Assembly: GCA_021792255.1 (NCBI GenBank) | Contig: JAJYUZ010000002.1 | Span: 192,001-256,000, forward strand | DNA: 64,000 nt | Source: Thermoplasmata archaeon | Lineage (GTDB): Archaea > Thermoplasmatota > Thermoplasmata > Thermoplasmatales > GCA-001856825 | Direction: 5' to 3' | In this document: piece by piece, positions 1,307 through 34,017 of the stretch | Layout: every line of letters begins with the position of its first letter | Numbering within the stretch: position 1 is the stretch's first letter | Notes under the pieces: model-generated | Told to the model about the DNA's origin: nothing | The model's input: the letters and a program-made list of their open reading frames with translations, nothing else | Databases searched by the model: none | Program-made: the position numbers and the translations under genes

Positions 1307-2038
1307 TCACTTATTTCTGATCTTCAGAAATTCCGAATAAAATTCAGGGATGCTTTCGTATTCGATTGGGTCTTCCGAGTCTGCCTGCATAAAGCCCTTG
1401 AGTCTAAGCTTGCATGAATCACAAACTCCACATGCCTTTTCTCCTCCCTTATAGCAAGACCAAGTGAGTTCTAGTGGTGTTTTCAACCTGATGGCAAGTC
1501 TTACTATATCTGCCTTGGAGTACCTAAGGAGTGGGGCCTCAACCTCGATGCTTCCACCCTCCACAGTCTTCTTGGTAGCCAGACTGAAAGTTTTATTGAT
1601 CGACTCAAAATATTCGGGTCTACAGTCTGGATAGCCAGAATAATCGAGTGAGTTGGCCCCTATGAAAATTTTTGATGAATCAGTGACCTCTGCAAGTCCC
1701 AGTGCTATCGAAAGCATTATCGTATTCCTTGCAGGAACATAGGTCACCGGTATCTCCTTACCTATGTCGTTGAGAGATTTTTCAGGAACCGAAATATCAT
1801 CGGTCAAAGCGCTTCCACCTATCATTCTCAGGTCCATTTTCATGATCTTGTGTTTGACCCTGTAGTAGTCCGCAATCTTTCTGGCTGACTCCAGCTCCTT
1901 GCTGTGTCGCTGCCCATAATCAAAAGACAGCGCCACTACTTCATAGCCTTGCGAAACAGCATAGGAAAGAAGAGTAGAACTGTCGAGTCCACCCGACAGC
2001 AGACTTACTGCTTTCTTATTTCCAGATCGATTTAGCAT
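1307..2038 (-). CDS. queC: 7-cyano-7-deazaguanine synthase
   Basis: SGGLDS PP-loop, FDYGQRH, TYVPARN, YPDCRPE, TWSCY..CGVCDSC Zn motif. Confidence 0.97.
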   Translation of the reverse strand: MLNRSGNKKAVSLLSGGLDSSTLLSYAVSQGYEVVALSFDYGQRHSKELESARKIADYYRVKHKIMKMDLRMIGGSALTDDISVPEKSLNDIGKEIPVTYVPARNTIMLSIALGLAEVTDSSKIFIGANSLDYSGYPDCRPEYFESINKTFSLATKKTVEGGSIEVEAPLLRYSKADIVRLAIRLKTPLELTWSCYKGGEKACGVCDSCKLRLKGFMQADSEDPIEYESIPEFYSEFLKIRNK

Positions 2039-2480
2039 ACTGACCAGGTCCTTCGTGAACTTCTATTTCCACCTGCTCCACGTTCAGTCCTAGAGATTTG
2101 ACAAACTTGTCTAGAATATATTCGCTCAAGCACTCTGCCGTTGTGTCCTTCACCGGCAAAACTCTACACTCTTCCTCAGGGAAGCTGTACTTTTTACCTT
2201 CTAAGCTGACAGTAAGGTTGCCTTCTTTCCTTTCAAAGACTATTCCTCTTCTCTTCTCTGGGATGAGAACCCTGTGGTCAAGAAAATCCGCGATTTCTCT
2301 CAAATTAGACTTACCCTTTGTGAAGTCTAGAAAATAGGTCTTGTCATCCATCGCACCGATGATCTTGACAGAAATAGAATAGTCGTGGCCGTGAATCCTA
2401 GAGCATTTCCAGTCTCCCGGAATAAAGTGGGCTGAGGAAAATCTTATGTTTGAGTAATTCCCATCTATGAATATCTCCAC
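2016..2480 (-). CDS. queD: 6-carboxy-5,6,7,8-tetrahydropterin synthase (PTPS family)
   Basis: FSSAHF, CSRIHGHDY, LDHRVL, TTAECL; likely GTG start at 2480; overlaps the queC start. Confidence 0.88.
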   Translation of the reverse strand: MEIFIDGNYSNIRFSSAHFIPGDWKCSRIHGHDYSISVKIIGAMDDKTYFLDFTKGKSNLREIADFLDHRVLIPEKRRGIVFERKEGNLTVSLEGKKYSFPEEECRVLPVKDTTAECLSEYILDKFVKSLGLNVEQVEIEVHEGPGQYAKSIWK

Positions 2481-2560
2481 GGCAGGGTATCTACATTTAC
2501 GCAAAAATCCTTTGGGGTAGAGTCAGCAAGAATTATATGTACTGTGAGAGTTAAGAGGAT

Positions 2561-14193: not shown

Positions 14194-14595
14194 TTATCGA
14201 CTCTTAACTTTTTCGAATCTAGCTATGACTCTGGTCTTGAGTCCCCCTCTAGCCTTAAACTCGCCAACAACTGCCATAAACCTTGGGGAAACGCTTTTCA
14301 CAAGATCTTCCAGAATCTTGTTTACTGCGTTCTCCTGAAAAATTCCGACGTTCCTGTACCTGTGCAGGTAGAGCTTGAATGACTTCAATTCGATTATCTT
14401 CTTGTCGGGGAGATAGTGCACTGTTATCTTCCCAAAATCAGGCATACCTGTCTTCGGGCAGATTGAGGTGAACTCGTCAGTCTCTATGGTTACGTGAGTT
14501 GAATTCTCTTGGTAGGGGAAAATAACCGAATCGATTTTCCCGAGGTCAAGATTCTTGATGCTCTTCTGCAAGTTCTCGTACTCTGACACTCTCAA
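14194..14595 (-). CDS. queF: NADPH-dependent preQ0 reductase, type I (preQ1 synthase)
   Basis: EFTSICPKTGMPDF (catalytic Cys/Asp), QueF motif ELKSFKLYL, FQEN, ARGG. Confidence 0.93.
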   Translation of the reverse strand: MRVSEYENLQKSIKNLDLGKIDSVIFPYQENSTHVTIETDEFTSICPKTGMPDFGKITVHYLPDKKIIELKSFKLYLHRYRNVGIFQENAVNKILEDLVKSVSPRFMAVVGEFKARGGLKTRVIARFEKVKSR

Positions 14596-17147: not shown

Positions 17148-18878
17148 ATGTGGGTCAGGCAACCAATCGTAGGGGTCCTTGGCCATGTGGACCATGGCAA
17201 GACTTCACTTCTCGATAATATCCGTGGAGGAGTAGTCGCCGCAAGAGAAGCTGGTGGAATTACCCAGCACATTGGGGCCACCGAGGTTCCTATTCAGGAA
17301 ATAGTCAGAATCTGCAAGGACATTATTGGAAACAAGGCTTTCAAAATCCCCGGATTATTATTTATAGATACTCCAGGGCACGAATCGTTTTCGAGTCTCA
17401 GAATAAGAGGCGGGTCTATAGCAGATATTGCAGTCCTCGTGATAGACGTGAGAGAAGGTATCATGCCACAGACTAGGGAATCTCTTGAAGTTCTGAAGAA
17501 GTTCAAGACGCCCTTCGTCGTCGCAGCCAATAAGGTTGACCTTGTTGAGGGATTCTCCGGGTTAAAGGGCGCCTTTATTCCTTCAACAAGGACAATAGAA
17601 CAATCACGAATCGAGGAGCTAGACAACAAGCTCTTCCAGCTTTCTTCCCAGCTTTATAGGGAAGGTTTCAGTGCTGACAGGTACGACAGAATATCGGATT
17701 TTGCCAGAAACGTCGCAATCGTTCCCTTGTCCGCTAAAACGGGATACGGTGTTCCAGATTTGCTAATGGTGCTTTCGGGACTAGCCCAAACTTTTCTGGA
17801 GTCGCAACTCACGAATGAGGACGAAACTGCGGAGGGAACAATCCTAGAGGTCAGGGAGGAAAAGGGGATGGGAGAGGTTTCGGACGCAATCCTCTACAGT
17901 GGAGTCATGAAAAGAGGGGAGACAGTATTCACAGGAACTGTGGATGGCATAAAGGCACTTAAGATCAAGGGAATATTCAAGCCTAAACCGCTCGATGAAA
18001 TCAGGGATCCAAGGGACAGATTTCTTCCAGTTTCGGAAGTTCGGGCCGCATCAGGAATCAGAATTCTGTTTCAGGGAGAAGGAGGAGTCATACCGGGTAG
18101 TCCCTTTAAGGAAGCATCTGGGGATCTTATTTCCCTGAAGAAGTCAATTGAAGATGCAATAACAGGCTCCTTTAAACCTTCTTCAGAGGGTATCGTTGCT
18201 AAAGCTGATACAGTCGGAGGACTCGAGGCACTCGTCTACGAACTGGGGAGGATCAATGTGCCAATAAAGAAGGCGGAGGTTGGCCCAGTGTCGAAGAGAG
18301 ACTTTACTGAGGCTGGAACAAACAAAGTCCCAGAGGATAGAATCATAATAGCGTTCAACGTTCCTGTCGAGGTTAAGGAGTACGCTGATGTCAAGGTAAT
18401 TGAAAACAAAATTATCTACTCAATAAAGGACGACCTGATGAAGGTAAGAGAGGAGATCAAGCAGAGGGAACTCGAAGAAAAGAGAAGGTCACTGACTTTT
18501 CCCTGCAAGCTGCTAATAATGCCAGGCAACGTTTTCAGGATCTCTAAGCCTGCCATATTTGGAGTCAGGATACTTGGAGGGAAGCTAAGGGTCAAGACTC
18601 AGCTGATGAAAGTTGACGGATCCGAGGTCGGACCTGTCAAGAGTATCAGGACGGGCGAGCAGTCGCTTCAGGACGCAAAGCAGGGTGAAGAAGTCGCGAT
18701 TGCGATGGACGGAATCACGATAGGCAGACAGCTCAGGGAAGGCGATATTCTATACTCGGAAATCAACGAGAGGGATTTCAGACTCCTCAAAGAGGAGAAT
18801 CTGAACGTGGACGAAAGTATGATTATGGAAGAGATCAAGGGTCTGAGAAGGAAGACCAGTCCATTTTGGGGAAGCTAG
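17148..18878 (+). CDS. infB: Translation initiation factor aIF5B (IF-2)
   Basis: [27 protein letters not shown]. Confidence 0.97.
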
Positions 18879-21375: not shown

Positions 21376-24279
21376 ATGCTTAATAAATCTGGAAAAACAG
21401 CAGCTCTGTTCGTCATCACTTTAATGGTGATGGGAGGACTCTTGGGAGCGGCATTCGGCCAAGTACAGGGAGCAGAAAAAGTGTCATTTAGTTTTACGGT
21501 GCTGGGGAATGGACAAGCCCCGGCGACTGGAGTTAATGTTGAACTCGAGAGCGCGAATGGAGTAGTTTTAGCAAGCACCACGTCGAGCCCCAGTGTAACA
21601 TTCCAGGCATATCCTGGAAGCTACATAGTTTACATTCCGAGCCAGTTTGTTTCATCTGGATCAATAGTCTACAATGCGTACCAAGCCAGCGTGAGTGTGA
21701 AGGACAATGGAACCGTATATGACGGAAATTCCGTGTTTCAGTATGCAAATGTAGGTTATTTGTCAGCGACCTCTTATGTGTACGCCACAGTGAAAGGAAT
21801 CACTTCTGCTCAGATAACTTCGGTCTACCTCGAATTGCCAAATGGTCTTGATATGATGGCAACGAAGGTCAATGCATCTAATCCAAATTCTGGATATGCT
21901 GTGACCACCATTTCGGGATCGCAGATCCTGACGGTGGAATACACCTCCACATCAAGGGCATTTTATTCGATACAACTGACCAACATATCCTCTAGCAAGA
22001 ACAACAGCGTTGTCGCTAACATCTCGTCTTCACAGAATGTCCAGGGCACAGTAGTTTCGACCAAGGGAACATCTGTAAATAGAGTAGAAGTATCTATTTA
22101 CCAGTCTGGAGTTTTACTCTCTGCAGACGTGTTCTCGAACGGCTATTACTATCTTTCACTTTCACCCGGAACCTACAATCTTGTGATATCATCGCCGGGT
22201 TATCTGCCAACCGTACGCTCTGTCACCACGACTTCTGGGGGAACAGCTACTTTTCAAACGATTACACTCACTCCTTCCAATGTCGAGCAACTACAGTCAA
22301 TTTCTTTCGGTTCTAACTTCCAGAACGTTACAATAAGCGGAGGAGTCACTTTGACAAACGCAACAGTTCTACCATTTCTCCCATATTCAAACGCAGGATC
22401 ACTCTACAATCAAATGCACTTGAACAATCTGAGCCCGGGCGAACTCTGGGCATTACTAAACGTGACCGTTCCGTACTCTACGGCGAACACGGTATTGTAC
22501 AACAATTACTCATACAACTCTACTGGAATTCACACAACATTCGCTGTTGGAACTGGCGGTACATACAAGTTCAATTATACTGCTACTTACTACCAATCAA
22601 AGGTGGCGGTTCAGAGTTATAGTACCATCAGGATATATGTCAACAAGAATGACAACAATACTACTGCACTTACATACATATCTCAACTCAGCATTCCTGC
22701 CTCTTATCAGAGGGCAAACATTGTGAGTTCGAGCCTAGCAACGGTCTCCGGCTACTCCGGAACAATCAGCATAACTAACAGCAGTTTCAATGGGTTCCTG
22801 ACCATCAAGATTGCCCCTCAATCAAAGCCAATACTGAAATTATCTCAAATCTCTGCGACTTGGAATAATTCTTTTGAATCGACTATATCATCCAACACTT
22901 CCTCCAACTTTACCCTTGTAGTTCCGGTAGGTAAACAGGTCACTCTGAATGCGAGCAAAGTTCCCTACGATAGCGTCCTGGGTACAGACAACTACGCCGA
23001 AATGAACTTCACATGGACGTTCGGAACCTCTACCACAATTTATGGGTACAACATCTCGTACACATTCACGAACGGATCTCATCTCGTTTCACTTACGGTG
23101 ACAAGCTCAAGCGGTGTAAAGAATGAAACAAATCTGACCATTATAGGTGATTCGCTTAATCCCCAATTCAACCTGAGGGTAATACAGAACGGTGGACTTA
23201 AGATGAATCAGACGACAACTCACTCAGTATCATATGTGCTGTGGGTAAACCAGACTCAAACCGTTTACTTCAATTCCGTAAAATCTAAGGATTTACTTCC
23301 TTCTGGTCAATCGACGGGAATACCAATTTCTGTGACATGGGTCATAGCTGGTTCCAGCGAGACGGGAACGAACGTATCTTATTCTTTCGGTATCCCGACA
23401 TTCAATTCAACGGTTGAACACGCGTACGCCACAGTCGAGAATGGAGTTGGAAGCACCTTTAATGTCAGCCTGACGATACACGTCAATGATACAACACCTC
23501 CAGTTGTCGCACTCCAGATATTCAATGCTTCTTCTGGCAAAGTTACTAGTTCAACCAAGCAAGATCAGAACGTCACTCTGAATGCATCCAAGAGCTACGC
23601 GCCAAATGGCGGGCACATAGTTTCCTATACGTGGTACTTTACCTATTCAAACGGAACCGTTGCCAAGTCCAACGTGGATTACAAAGTTTACAGCTCATCT
23701 TCTAACAATTCCTCTCTGACTATTGCATTCCTTCAATACGGCAATTTTGAAATAAAAGTAAAAGCAGTAGATCAGTCAAACAACACGGGAACCGCGTCTC
23801 AGAGTCTGAGCGTGATTGCAGTTGGTCCAGAAATAGAGATAATGAACATAACGTATCCCAAGAGCTATGTCGAGGGATCTTCCTCGGTCTTGAAGTTCGA
23901 TCTGAAGAACGTTGGAATTGAGTCTGCTACGAGCTACTACATAACCGTAAAGATCGCAGGAAAGACTGTCAAGAACGAGACGTTCACCAATCTCTCCTCG
24001 AACCAGTCTACTAATGTATCGGTGACGTTTGCTCCTCCGAGCTCTGGAAGCTATTCTATGGTCATGAGTGTACATGCACTAAATGAGCCATCATTCTTCA
24101 ACACTAACACCTCCGTAACAAAAGCGATTTCAGTGGCGCAAGCCGCATGGAAACTGCCAGCCCTGGTTGGAGGTATAGTGGTTGCAATCGGAGTACTTTC
24201 GTTCGTCTACTACGACGTCACGGTCAGAAGAAAGAGGCCCAAGGAAGTTAAGCAGCCAAAGAAGCAGCTAAAAGTCTAA
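21376..24279 (+). CDS. Large cell-surface glycoprotein (carboxypeptidase-regulatory-like, PKD and CARDB-like domains)
   Basis: Signal peptide; S/T/N-rich; PKD-like LNASKS..SYTW; C-terminal TM with basic tail. Confidence 0.8.
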   Translation: MLNKSGKTAALFVITLMVMGGLLGAAFGQVQGAEKVSFSFTVLGNGQAPATGVNVELESANGVVLASTTSSPSVTFQAYPGSYIVYIPSQFVSSGSIVYNAYQASVSVKDNGTVYDGNSVFQYANVGYLSATSYVYATVKGITSAQITSVYLELPNGLDMMATKVNASNPNSGYAVTTISGSQILTVEYTSTSRAFYSIQLTNISSSKNNSVVANISSSQNVQGTVVSTKGTSVNRVEVSIYQSGVLLSADVFSNGYYYLSLSPGTYNLVISSPGYLPTVRSVTTTSGGTATFQTITLTPSNVEQLQSISFGSNFQNVTISGGVTLTNATVLPFLPYSNAGSLYNQMHLNNLSPGELWALLNVTVPYSTANTVLYNNYSYNSTGIHTTFAVGTGGTYKFNYTATYYQSKVAVQSYSTIRIYVNKNDNNTTALTYISQLSIPASYQRANIVSSSLATVSGYSGTISITNSSFNGFLTIKIAPQSKPILKLSQISATWNNSFESTISSNTSSNFTLVVPVGKQVTLNASKVPYDSVLGTDNYAEMNFTWTFGTSTTIYGYNISYTFTNGSHLVSLTVTSSSGVKNETNLTIIGDSLNPQFNLRVIQNGGLKMNQTTTHSVSYVLWVNQTQTVYFNSVKSKDLLPSGQSTGIPISVTWVIAGSSETGTNVSYSFGIPTFNSTVEHAYATVENGVGSTFNVSLTIHVNDTTPPVVALQIFNASSGKVTSSTKQDQNVTLNASKSYAPNGGHIVSYTWYFTYSNGTVAKSNVDYKVYSSSSNNSSLTIAFLQYGNFEIKVKAVDQSNNTGTASQSLSVIAVGPEIEIMNITYPKSYVEGSSSVLKFDLKNVGIESATSYYITVKIAGKTVKNETFTNLSSNQSTNVSVTFAPPSSGSYSMVMSVHALNEPSFFNTNTSVTKAISVAQAAWKLPALVGGIVVAIGVLSFVYYDVTVRRKRPKEVKQPKKQLKV

Positions 24280-27637: not shown

Positions 27638-28717
27638 GTGCAAGCAAGAGCCGAGCTAGATCTATCAAGAGGGAAGGTGGAGCTTCCACTCTTTCTACCA
27701 GTTGCAACTCGAGGTTTCGTCAAGGCAACCCCGATGCAAAAAATCAATGAGATGAACATAAAGGCGCTCATATCCAATTCCGTTCATCTGACAATTTCGC
27801 CGGGATTGGAGACTCTGGAGAAGACTGAAGGGATAAATGGATATACGGGTTTTAAAGGCAGTTATTTCACTGACTCCGGGGGTTTTCAGATACTGAGAAA
27901 GGAGTTAGTTAAGGTAGAAAGGGATGGGATCCTATTCAGAGATAGGAAATCTGGAAAAGCCATAAGAGTGACGCCTGAGGTCAGTTCTGAAATTCAAAGC
28001 AAGATAAGATCTGATGTAGCAATGATGCTTGATGATTGTCCTCCCTACGGCGCAGAAACCAAAAGATATTCTCAGTCAGTGAAGAGGACCTATGAATGGG
28101 GAAAGATATTCTCTTCACTTAAAGCTCACAATCAGAAAAGATTCGGTATCATCCAAGGAGGATTTGAAGGAGAACTGAGGTCTGAGAGTGCAAGATTGAT
28201 GACTTCCTTAGAATTTGATGGGTTTGCGATAGGAGGGTTGAAGATAGGCGAGCCTAAGGAATTCACTGACAGAGTTCTTGCAAAGACAATTCCTCTGATT
28301 CCAAAGGAATATCCAGTTTATCTTATGGGAGTTGGAGATCCTCTCTCCATAGTTGAATATACCAAGGCAGGAATAGACATTTTTGATTCGACCTATCCTA
28401 CGAGAAATGCCAGACATGGATTTGCGTTGACCAATGGTGGTCCAGTCAATTTAAAGAATGCTAAACACTCTAACGACTTTCAACCGATAGAAAGTGGTTG
28501 TTCCTGTGAAACTTGCACTTTCTACGACAAGTCGATGCTGAGGGAACTGCACAAGAATGAGGATCCTTCTTTTCAATACTTGATGACTATCCATAATCTG
28601 GACTTTATGCAGAGATTCATGGAATCAGTCCGAAATGATACTGAAAAGGCGTGGTCAATTGCCAAGAATTTCAGCAAAGTCAATAACTCAGAAGTCAATT
28701 ACGACAAAGTTGGGTAG
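27638..28717 (+). CDS. tgt: tRNA-guanine transglycosylase, bacterial (preQ1/G34) type
   Basis: PVAT, DSGGFQ, LDDCPPY, IIQGG, GGLKIGE, YLMGVG, FDSTYPTRNARHG, CSCETC..HN; 359 aa with no archaeal C-terminal/PUA domains. Confidence 0.9.
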   Translation: MQARAELDLSRGKVELPLFLPVATRGFVKATPMQKINEMNIKALISNSVHLTISPGLETLEKTEGINGYTGFKGSYFTDSGGFQILRKELVKVERDGILFRDRKSGKAIRVTPEVSSEIQSKIRSDVAMMLDDCPPYGAETKRYSQSVKRTYEWGKIFSSLKAHNQKRFGIIQGGFEGELRSESARLMTSLEFDGFAIGGLKIGEPKEFTDRVLAKTIPLIPKEYPVYLMGVGDPLSIVEYTKAGIDIFDSTYPTRNARHGFALTNGGPVNLKNAKHSNDFQPIESGCSCETCTFYDKSMLRELHKNEDPSFQYLMTIHNLDFMQRFMESVRNDTEKAWSIAKNFSKVNNSEVNYDKVG

Positions 28718-28783
28718 GTGGCAGAGCGGCTATGCACGGGACTGCAGATCCCGACTATTGGGGTTCGAATCCCCACCTACCCT
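28712..28783 (+). tRNA. tRNA-Cys (GCA), no encoded CCA, no intron
   Basis: Acceptor GGGTAGG/CCTACCC, anticodon arm CGGGA-CTGCAGA-TCCCG, T arm TGGGG-TTCGAAT-CCCCA, discriminator U. Confidence 0.97.
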
Positions 28784-32577: not shown

Positions 32578-34017
32578 TCACTCCACGCAACACGCCATCT
32601 TGGACAGGTCCCTGATAAATGATTGTGCTGCAAGTTTTATCCCCTCGGATATGGAAGGGAAGATGTGGCTTGTGGCAATGATGTCGTCTATGGTGTAACC
32701 ATTCTTGACAGCATATGCGCCCTCTGTTATTATGTCTGTCGCATTTGGAGCAATGATATGCATTCCCACTACCCTGTTGTCCTTTGGGTCGACAGTGATC
32801 TTTATGACGCCTTCAGTTTCTCCCATGATGCTTGCCTTTGTAAGATTCTCCAGGGAGAACACTCTGCAGGAACACGATCCGTTCTTCTTTGAGAACTCGC
32901 TCTCTGTCATTCCAACGCCTGCAACCTGCGGGCTGGTGAATACTGCCCATGCCACCGAGTCGTAATCGATCTTTAGATTTTCGCCGAACATGTTGCTCAC
33001 GGCTATGACACCTTCTCTGGCGGCCAGAGTTTCGAGGAACATTTTTTTGGAAACACAGTCTCCTGCGGCATAAATTCCAGGTGAGGATGTCTTCATTTTA
33101 TCAGAAGTGATTATTTGTCCTCTTGAATCAGTGTTTACACCGGCAGTCCCAAGGTCCAGATATTCTGTGTTGGGCTGTCTTCCGGTTGCGACTATGATTT
33201 CCTGAGCTTCTATTTTCTCCTTCCCCTTGTGGGTTATGACATCAATATATTTCCCGCTTCTAGATGAGCTTACGGCACTAACTCTTGCTCTCAGGAAGAA
33301 TTTCATACCTTCCTCCTCCAGGTGCTTTTTCATGACTGAACCTATCTCAGGCTCAGTTTGTGGTAGAAGGACATCGAGCGCCTCAATCACCGTTACCTTT
33401 GATCCAAAATGGAGGAGCGCCTGGCCTATTTCAAGACCAATGGCCCCTCCACCTATTATTGCAATTGATTCAGGAAGATCTTTGACGTCCCATATGGTAT
33501 CGCTTGTCAGAAATCCTGACTCATTCAAACCTTCGATGTTTGGAACTGCTGGATGCGATCCTGTTGCAATGAGGATATTTGATCCTGAAACCACTGCAAC
33601 CTCAGATCCATCAGAATCTGATATCATTATGGTCTTTTTATCCACAAATTTCCCCAGACCTGCGAAGAGCTTCACGTTCCTGTAGTTCTCAATCACCCTT
33701 ACATATTTTGAATCCCTTGCGTGTGCAACGTAAGATCTCAGGCCATTCATAACTTTAGCAAAATCATATTTGACTTCCGTTGGGTGTATTCCTGCCATTT
33801 TTGGGTGTTCTGGCTTGAAAACTGAATGAGAGGCCTCAAGCAGATATTTTGATGGAACGCAACCTACGTTCACGCACGTTCCTCCCAATGGCCCCGTGCC
33901 GATCATCGCTATGGTCATCTCTCCGTTGCTGAGCTCTGAGGCCTTTATTGCAGCGGAAAATGCCGCCGCCCCTCTTCCAAGTATTACTAGATCGAATTTT
34001 TGTTGATCACCGATCAA
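32578..34017 (-). CDS. merA: Mercuric reductase (no N-terminal NmerA domain)
   Basis: GGTCVNVGCVPSK, GGGAIGLE, C-terminal ACCVE cysteine pair. Confidence 0.93.
   Translation of the reverse strand: MIGDQQKFDLVILGRGAAAFSAAIKASELSNGEMTIAMIGTGPLGGTCVNVGCVPSKYLLEASHSVFKPEHPKMAGIHPTEVKYDFAKVMNGLRSYVAHARDSKYVRVIENYRNVKLFAGLGKFVDKKTIMISDSDGSEVAVVSGSNILIATGSHPAVPNIEGLNESGFLTSDTIWDVKDLPESIAIIGGGAIGLEIGQALLHFGSKVTVIEALDVLLPQTEPEIGSVMKKHLEEEGMKFFLRARVSAVSSSRSGKYIDVITHKGKEKIEAQEIIVATGRQPNTEYLDLGTAGVNTDSRGQIITSDKMKTSSPGIYAAGDCVSKKMFLETLAAREGVIAVSNMFGENLKIDYDSVAWAVFTSPQVAGVGMTESEFSKKNGSCSCRVFSLENLTKASIMGETEGVIKITVDPKDNRVVGMHIIAPNATDIITEGAYAVKNGYTIDDIIATSHIFPSISEGIKLAAQSFIRDLSKMACCVE

Follow-up and report, generated by a model that had tools for sequence, protein, structure and literature searches.

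A bacterial-type transglycosylase gene at an archaeal locus

This study concerns a tRNA-guanosine(34) transglycosylase gene (tgt) and its candidate partners in queuosine synthesis, in a 64,000-nucleotide stretch of archaeal metagenomic DNA, hereafter the window (contig JAJYUZ010000002.1, positions 192,001 to 256,000; C6:192001-256000 in our numbering). The contig belongs to a 1.59-Mb, 11-contig metagenome bin of 93.55% completeness and 0.46% contamination, and the ten sequencing runs that contain the stretch are DNA runs from three studies of mine drainage, sediment and mine tailings metagenomes, with seven of the runs perhaps its source and no RNA run among those listed. The tgt gene occupies positions 27638-28717 of the window on the forward strand, opens with a GTG start codon and comprises 359 codons; its open reading frame (ORF) and the Pfam and NCBIfam matches identify the product as a bacterial-type tRNA-guanosine(34) transglycosylase with a single TGT domain (Tgt, or Tgt34 for the family).

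An initial annotation of this DNA had read bacterial-type motifs in the protein and no archaeosine-type C-terminal or PUA domain. We find all six motifs in the translation (LPVAT, TDSGGFQ, LDDCPPY, GGLKIGE, YLMGVG and PTRNARHG), and Pfam TGT (PF01702) matches residues 5-334 at 354.9 bits with nothing C-terminal of the domain, so that C1, C2 and PUA domains are absent. Among the NCBIfam models, the protein passes the Tgt(34) equivalog TIGR00430 (330 bits against a cut-off of 306.75) and fails those for the archaeosine enzyme arcTGT (TIGR00432, 116.7 against 350), for DpdA (NF041059, 22.3 against 200) and for ArcS (27.8 against 440). The top solved structure is Tgt of Thermotoga maritima (2ash, 8.3e-79), followed by about 45 structures of Zymomonas mobilis Tgt at ~1e-70 (bacterial range 8e-79 to 1e-68) and by eukaryotic QTRT1 at 8e-60 (i.e., ~1e-59), with the arcTGT structure of Pyrococcus horikoshii at only 2.4e-14. 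These scores, together with the tree described below, support the prediction that this is a G34-type Tgt of the queuosine branch, as first proposed, and neither an arcTGT nor a DpdA.

We transferred Z. mobilis numbering to the window Tgt through the structure-match alignment. Across 97 other Tgt34 sequences, 72 columns reach a conservation of 90% or more; the window Tgt and 16 relatives, which form a 17-row clade in our tree, keep 59 of them. Among those kept are D79, D132, C134, Q173, G199-G200, E205, M230 and D250 (D102, D156, C158, Q203, G229-G230, E235, M260 and D280 in Z. mobilis); the zinc ligands C288, C290, C293 and H319 (CxCxxC...H; C318, C320, C323 and H349) are likewise kept, and these four, with D79, D132 and D250, are invariant in the clade. 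The catalytic, pocket and zinc roles of D280, D102/D156, C158, G229-G230, E235 and the others are those given in the Tgt literature. The residues of the preQ1-type pocket (Cys158, Gln203, Gly229-Gly230-Leu231, Val/Ile233, Glu235, Met260) are kept throughout the clade except at position 232, where the bacterial pocket has a small residue, and Cys134 and Ile203 of the window protein stand at the bacterial Cys158 and Val233 positions, which presumably fit preQ1.

Queuosine and archaeosine genes in the host genome

Genes named queC, queD and queF had been placed in the same window, and two of the three assignments hold at the level of family cut-offs. The queC gene (1307-2038, reverse strand) encodes a predicted preQ0 (7-cyano-7-deazaguanine) synthase of 243 residues (TIGR00364, 219.9 bits, cut-off 150.3; PF06508, 253.7 bits), and queF (14194-14595, reverse strand) a predicted unimodular NADPH-dependent preQ0 reductase, or preQ1 synthase, of 133 residues (TIGR03139, 139 bits, cut-off 86.9). 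QueF shows the catalytic Cys context EFTSICPKTG and the motif ELKSFKLY, which we take to represent the NADPH-binding motif E(S/L)K(S/A)hK(L/Y)(Y/F/W), and it matches Bacillus subtilis QueF (4f8b) at 8e-25, against 8.9e-5 for crenarchaeal QueF-Like (5jyx). Because of the Cys context, the ELKSFKLY motif and this closer match, we assign it to the reductase type rather than to the QueF-Like amidinotransferases, which bears out the description of it as a true QueF. The third gene (2016-2504, reverse strand) shares 23 bases with queC, in the same orientation, and its start is uncertain (TTG at 2504, or position 2480 as first annotated). Its product belongs to the 6-carboxytetrahydropterin synthase (PTPS) family (PF01242, 69.3 bits) and contains CSRIHGH, presumably a QueD signature, but it scores under both NCBIfam cut-offs (60.2 against 89.25 for TIGR03367, and 68.6 against 125.5), and we therefore call it queD-like.

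Outside the window, the genome encodes QueA on contig C11 (301.6 bits, cut-off 267.45; 334-residue frame; PF02547, 329.6 bits), QueG on the same contig as the window (237.6 bits, cut-off 200), a GTP cyclohydrolase IB (GCYH-IB, 231.6 bits) and, also on contig C6, a radical-SAM (S-adenosylmethionine) protein that is a candidate QueE. On the archaeosine side are an arcTGT of 598 residues on contig C3 (TGT, TGT_C2 and PUA domains) and an ArcS-like protein (DUF5591 and PUA); Tgt34 and arcTGT are the only two TGT-family genes in the genome, the ArcS-like protein scoring weakly on related models. QueH was not found in the genome, nor was a preQ1-I riboswitch (RF00522; classes II and III were not searched) or a VUT/YhhQ transporter (QueT and QrtT were not searched), and the missing transporter fits synthesis rather than salvage. 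QueC, QueF, Tgt, QueA and QueG are thus above their cut-offs, and the QueD-like and QueE candidates below; taken as candidate genes, a complete de novo queuosine set stands beside archaeosine genes in one genome.

From gene presence, reading frames, families, residues, anticodon loops and conservation, we infer the enzymatic activities, the modified tRNA position and the final nucleoside as follows. GTP would be converted to preQ0 through GTP cyclohydrolase IB, the QueD-like protein, QueE and QueC. preQ0 would then be a shared branch point, from which arcTGT would insert it at G15 for conversion to archaeosine by the ArcS-like protein, and from which QueF would reduce it to preQ1. Tgt, probably a homodimer, would exchange G34 for preQ1 in tRNA-Asp, tRNA-Asn, tRNA-His and tRNA-Tyr, after which QueA would form epoxyqueuosine and a cobalamin-type QueG would form queuosine. 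Because both QueA and QueG are encoded in the genome, the predicted end product is queuosine, not only preQ1. The candidate substrates tRNA-His(GUG), tRNA-Asp(GUC), tRNA-Asn(GUU) and tRNA-Tyr(GUA) are each encoded by a single gene and each read C32-U33-G34-U35, and both NAC and NAU codons are heavily used in the host genome, with NAU making up 37-54% of each NAY pair. We consider it likely, by about three chances to one in our own estimation, that the window gene encodes a working G34 transglycosylase in a de novo queuosine pathway that operates alongside archaeosine synthesis.

The partners of tgt recur across the host's family (25 genomes, four genera), with QueG in 25 genomes, arcTGT in 24, QueF in 23 and QueA in 22. 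Tgt34 is present as 20 full-length copies and one fragment, and the misses fall in bins that are 61-87% complete. The family uses QueG in place of QueH, unlike the rest of its class.

Several scores weigh against a complete and working pathway: the QueE candidate reaches 81.8 + 30.4 bits against 206.1, is below every cut-off tried and is split by an insert, the queD-like gene is under its cut-offs, and the ArcS-like protein reaches 213.8 bits against 440. Were a weaker gene to fail, such as queE with its insert, the queD-like gene, or queG for want of cobalamin, the pathway might stop at preQ1-34 or at epoxyqueuosine, or might use imported preQ1. We think this improbable, since the same preQ0 genes must serve archaeosine synthesis, which the near-universal arcTGT of the family implies, since QueG is above cut-off in every family genome, since no YhhQ-type importer was found in the host genome, and since QueE occurs without the insert, and with equal conservation, in 17 family genomes.

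The QueE candidate (contig C6:318913-319959(+)) is interrupted by a 138-residue intein-like insert, a putative Hint-like mini-intein, T37-N174, which sits within the radical-SAM cluster motif (CNLRCSW|...SHN|CDT) such that its +1 residue is the third cluster cysteine. Among the 24 matched family genomes, six, all of one genus, bear the insert, 17 carry insert-less genes of ~210 residues in which residues 1-36 join 175-348 precisely, and one yields a fragment only. In all six bearing alleles the insert begins with Thr and has no Cys. Its matches to Hint and intein models are weak (Pfam Intein_splicing, 24.8 bits against a cut-off of 35.8; Protein Data Bank inteins, E 0.02-0.7), and we find no description of it among the intein and QueE literature matches listed. 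For the QueE candidate to function the insert would need to splice out, a further demand on the pathway as proposed.

Integrity of the contig and age of the acquisition

A protein family typical of bacteria, found in an 11-contig metagenome bin that yields no rRNA gene, could point to a foreign gene, brought in by a binning or assembly chimera, by bacterial contamination or on a recent island; alternatively, the product could be a DpdA-like DNA-modifying transglycosylase. We regard either as very improbable. The DpdA score is given above. The gene for the archaeal initiation factor aIF5B (17148-18878; TIGR00491, 630 bits, cut-off 554.75) lies between queF and tgt, 9 kb upstream of tgt on the same contig, and tRNA-Tyr and tRNA-Trp of the host genome contain introns; these features confirm the archaeal setting. 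The contamination estimate for the bin is low, as stated, and the GC content, third-position GC content (GC3) and codon usage of tgt, queA, queG, queC, queE and queF are within 2 standard deviations of 725 long host ORFs, such that their composition is indistinguishable from that of the host.

Comparison with related assemblies gives the same result. The 16 nearest loci from named public genomes (60-84% identity), among them an acid-mine 'I-plasma' bin with a 567-kb contig, all bear the title Thermoplasmatales, Thermoplasmata or Methanobacteriota archaeon. Of 15 related loci from independent assemblies, 13 reproduce the window's gene order ArgRS-DUF72-orf76-CBS-tgt; the other two are broken by contig ends, yet retain CBS-tgt, and four loci extend to aIF5B. 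In these loci Tgt is at least as well conserved (60-81% identity) as the adjacent ArgRS (49-79%), which, with the family counts and the host-like composition, speaks for purifying selection and vertical descent. The contig is archaeal and not chimeric, and host-like composition, conserved synteny and presence across the family support an old acquisition of tgt, as the initial annotation had suggested in calling it established rather than recent. One reservation concerns the name of the host: with no 16S rRNA gene found in the assembly, its lineage, Thermoplasmatales-like, is placed only through named relatives.

Distribution and phylogeny of archaeal Tgt34

We next consider how widespread the trait is, using a sample of 301 genomes of the class that includes the host genome and two unpublished genomes (G212 and G098) as sample members only. 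Tgt34 is above cut-off in 71 genomes, QueA in 69, QueH in 67 and QueF in 51, and QueG in 4, with only six QueG candidates per genome scored. Tgt34 and QueA are borne by the same eleven families, and none of the 33 genomes of the largest family in the host's order passes the cut-off for either. Among the 120 best homologues of the window Tgt, an organism name is attached to 18 rows, all of them archaeal, and NCBI already labels such proteins 'tRNA guanosine(34) transglycosylase Tgt'. The window Tgt is 34-39% identical to bacterial Tgt and 41-46% identical to other archaeal Tgt34.

The available text of Castelle et al. 2021 (PMC8204110) counts 34 archaeal genomes, including 12 from DPANN, that have all or part of the bacterial queuosine pathway, and flags these genes as surprising given that queuosine was held to be bacterial and eukaryotic. 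The earlier statement that such a branch is rarely predicted in archaea fails against these counts and labels. The trait is not rare in the class, and the window gene is one more example of a known oddity rather than something new in print; as a genomic observation, archaeal queuosine genes repeat a published report.

A quick maximum-likelihood tree (LG+G4, 115 rows, eight of them bacterial sequences from two phyla), rooted on the arcTGT branch, recovers the 17-row clade as monophyletic with a Shimodaira-Hasegawa-like approximate likelihood ratio (SH-aLRT) of 100 and groups it weakly, as sister, with the Tgt sequences of two further families in the host's order (SH-aLRT 85-86, from a quick search). 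A branch of 4.8 substitutions divides the clade from the host's own arcTGT, which, together with the family scores, keeps the window Tgt apart from both arcTGT and DpdA. The eight bacterial sequences form a clade of their own, nested among archaeal rows. With eight bacterial sequences from two phyla and a root branch 4.8 long, neither the root nor the direction of transfer can be read from this tree, and we make no claim as to a donor.

Three side observations emerge from these data. First, class genomes without Tgt34 often hold a full-length QueA-like frame at ~100-155 bits, under the 267 cut-off (e.g., G134:C1:1398671-1399618 and G267:C1:636071-637048). QueA matches at E <= 1e-5 occur in 121 of the 301 genomes, of which 69 pass the cut-off, and the rows below it include G212 and G098; some of these frames are fused into longer proteins of 400-780 residues, and they look like a QueA paralogue with another role. 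Second, the DPANN-type archaeal Tgt34 clade reads LDDM(S/P)xY and TDCGGFQ, with Met at the Cys158 position, at which bacterial and Thermoplasmata Tgt, the window protein included, have Cys, and with Cys for Ser103, and because Met replaces a pocket Cys its base preference may differ from that of bacterial Tgt. Third, rows of Woesearchaeota and Nanoarchaeota are interspersed on the tree with metagenome-assembled genomes labelled Methanosarcinales, a pattern that points to unreliable labels or bins in some cases.

Clade-specific residues and the dimer interface

The clade nonetheless departs from other Tgt34 sequences in ways that count against a conventional enzyme. Its stem is the longest in the tree, at 1.05 substitutions per site, and 13 of the 72 otherwise conserved columns are altered, including T to L in the universally conserved 'ETP' and H to N, F to Y and M to T in GLHxFM. 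The Lys noted in the initial annotation is real: GGLKIGE is the loop sequence of all 17 clade members, compared with A, S, C, L, G or T at the Lys site in the 97 other Tgt34 rows, and Lys at this position occurs in no other sequence of the 115-row set. Lys202 occupies the Z. mobilis Ala232 position, which we take to adjoin the Leu231/Ala232 peptide switch for recognition of the incoming base.

Changes at the dimer surface accompany those in the loop. Tyr330 is replaced by Met in the window Tgt and by K, M, A, G or E across the clade, His333 by Glu in all 17 members, Phe92 by Tyr in 15 of 17, Met93 by Thr and His90 by Asn, and the clade residues do not reproduce the aromatic cluster Trp326/Tyr330/His333/Phe92' that holds the homodimer (Nguyen et al. 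2020). For bacterial Tgt, the available text of Nguyen et al. 2020 calls Tyr330 'strictly conserved' and His333 'nearly invariant', reports that a Tyr330Phe mutant dimerises poorly and loses about two-thirds of its activity, and describes a loss of interface stability when His333 is protonated near pH 5.5.

We find that a homodimer model of the window Tgt nevertheless scores 0.67, against 0.01 for the best control, a mark that, among solved structures, 20 of 30 homomers and 1 of 23 monomers attained. At least 97% of contacts are common to the runs, with a partner pLDDT of at least 88. The modelled interface comprises residues 25-34, 54-63, 69-71 and 278-315, which correspond to the Z. mobilis dimer surface, and Glu303 contacts Arg25' and Phe27'. 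Since bacterial Tgt dimers have been solved, this pass may reflect likeness to, or memory of, known dimers. The hot-spot residues are lost, but on the model dimerisation may persist.

An active enzyme of shifted specificity would account for some of these features, with Lys202 and the rebuilt N-terminus and dimer surface changing the base inserted (e.g., preQ0 for preQ1), the tRNA or the position. The Lys shared by the whole clade, the long stem and the altered columns, 'ETP' and GLHxFM among them, speak for such an enzyme. We think it unlikely, at roughly one chance in eight: the base-contacting and catalytic residues, in the roles we assume for them, are all retained, including Cys134 and Ile203; position 232 is the most variable one of the loop across archaeal homologues; and QueF, QueA and QueG, whose substrates are preQ0 and preQ1-34-tRNA or its product, are conserved along with Tgt across the family, which would be pointless if the enzyme did not insert preQ1 at G34. 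A related and similarly doubtful idea is that Tgt has been re-tuned, with the Lys and a rebuilt interface, in which a predicted Glu303-Arg25' contact replaces Tyr330 and the acid-sensitive His333, altering what is inserted or where and perhaps also allowing a normally pH-fragile homodimer to function in a mildly acidic cytoplasm. If true, GUN tRNAs would carry archaeosine at position 15 and a queuosine-type base at position 34, both from one preQ0 pool. Any adaptive link between the rebuilt interface and such a cytoplasm is conjecture on our part.

Comparison with known systems

A conventional G34 enzyme acting on preQ1 remains the reading that we favor, and it is closest to bacterial Tgt (T. 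maritima 2ASH; Z. mobilis, about 75 entries, e.g., 1ENU; Escherichia coli b0406). The window Tgt likewise consists of a single TIM-barrel TGT domain with a zinc subdomain, shows the same catalytic Asp pair and the same preQ1-type pocket residues at three sites (Cys158, a branched residue at 233, Glu235), has QueA, QueF and QueG as genomic partners and is predicted to dimerise via the same surface. It differs in being ~10-20 residues shorter at the N-terminus and in having Lys rather than Ala or Ser at 232, and the queA-tgt operon is absent, the neighbours of tgt being a CBS-domain gene and a tRNA-Cys gene. With arcTGT (P. horikoshii 1IQ8 and the host copy) it has the superfamily, the fold and the preQ0 supply in common; the host arcTGT, however, has the added C2 and PUA domains, reads GGIVPLM and HAFGAG where the window Tgt has GGLKIGE and YLMGVG, and would act at G15 with preQ0. 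The eukaryotic QTRT1/QTRT2 heterodimer shares the G34 specificity, and QTRT1 the sequence similarity given above, but it takes queuine and needs a non-catalytic paralogue, whereas the host genome has only Tgt34 and arcTGT; at positions 158 and 233 we assume Val and Gly for the eukaryotic enzyme.

The systems in the available text of Castelle et al. 2021 (PMC8204110) resemble the present one in that bacterial-type Tgt and QueA occur in archaeal genomes. The focus of that text is on DPANN and 'some Euryarchaeota (Methanosarcinales)', in which QueA, a QueH-like protein and Tgt, for the last three steps, are co-localised; in the host the genes are dispersed, the last step is assigned to QueG, and QueC/D/E/F candidates make up a de novo preQ1 branch. 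In the DPANN-type Tgt aligned here, Met stands where the window Tgt and the bacterial enzymes have Cys158. No measurement of queuosine in archaeal tRNA came to light in our literature searches. Searches pairing queuosine with I-plasma returned nothing, and with Aciduliprofundum nothing relevant; for MGII, none of the matches listed concerned a host pathway by title or abstract, and for Methanosarcinales, only Castelle et al. was relevant among the matches listed.

By its gene sets, a large part of one archaeal class is equipped for queuosine, and the host's family has candidates for the whole de novo route. In textbooks, queuosine belongs to bacteria and eukaryotes and archaeosine to archaea. 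Were queuosine to be found in archaeal tRNA, this would be a wobble modification newly shown in that domain, and the tRNAs that bear it would carry both types of 7-deazaguanine, with a natural partition of preQ0 between two transglycosylases. The altered dimer interface of the family, for its part, offers a natural experiment on residues treated as essential in work on inhibitors of Shigella Tgt.

Neighbouring features of the window

Immediately downstream of tgt, and not a Tgt substrate, is a tRNA-Cys(GCA) gene (28712-28783, forward strand; ARAGORN; Rfam tRNA, 58.1 bits), whose first 6 bases coincide with the last 6 of tgt, in the same orientation, such that the tgt stop codon (28715-28717) lies inside the acceptor stem; the 35-base core of this tRNA is found at the equivalent spot in 7 of the 15 related loci. 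Located 4 kb downstream of tgt, a mercuric reductase gene, merA (32578-34017, reverse strand; TIGR02053, 529.9 bits, cut-off 454.45), fits a metal-rich mine habitat. Upstream, a 967-residue ORF (21376-24279, forward strand) has no NCBIfam match at E <= 1e-10 and is conserved (43-74% identity) at the equivalent position in 13 of the 15 related loci.

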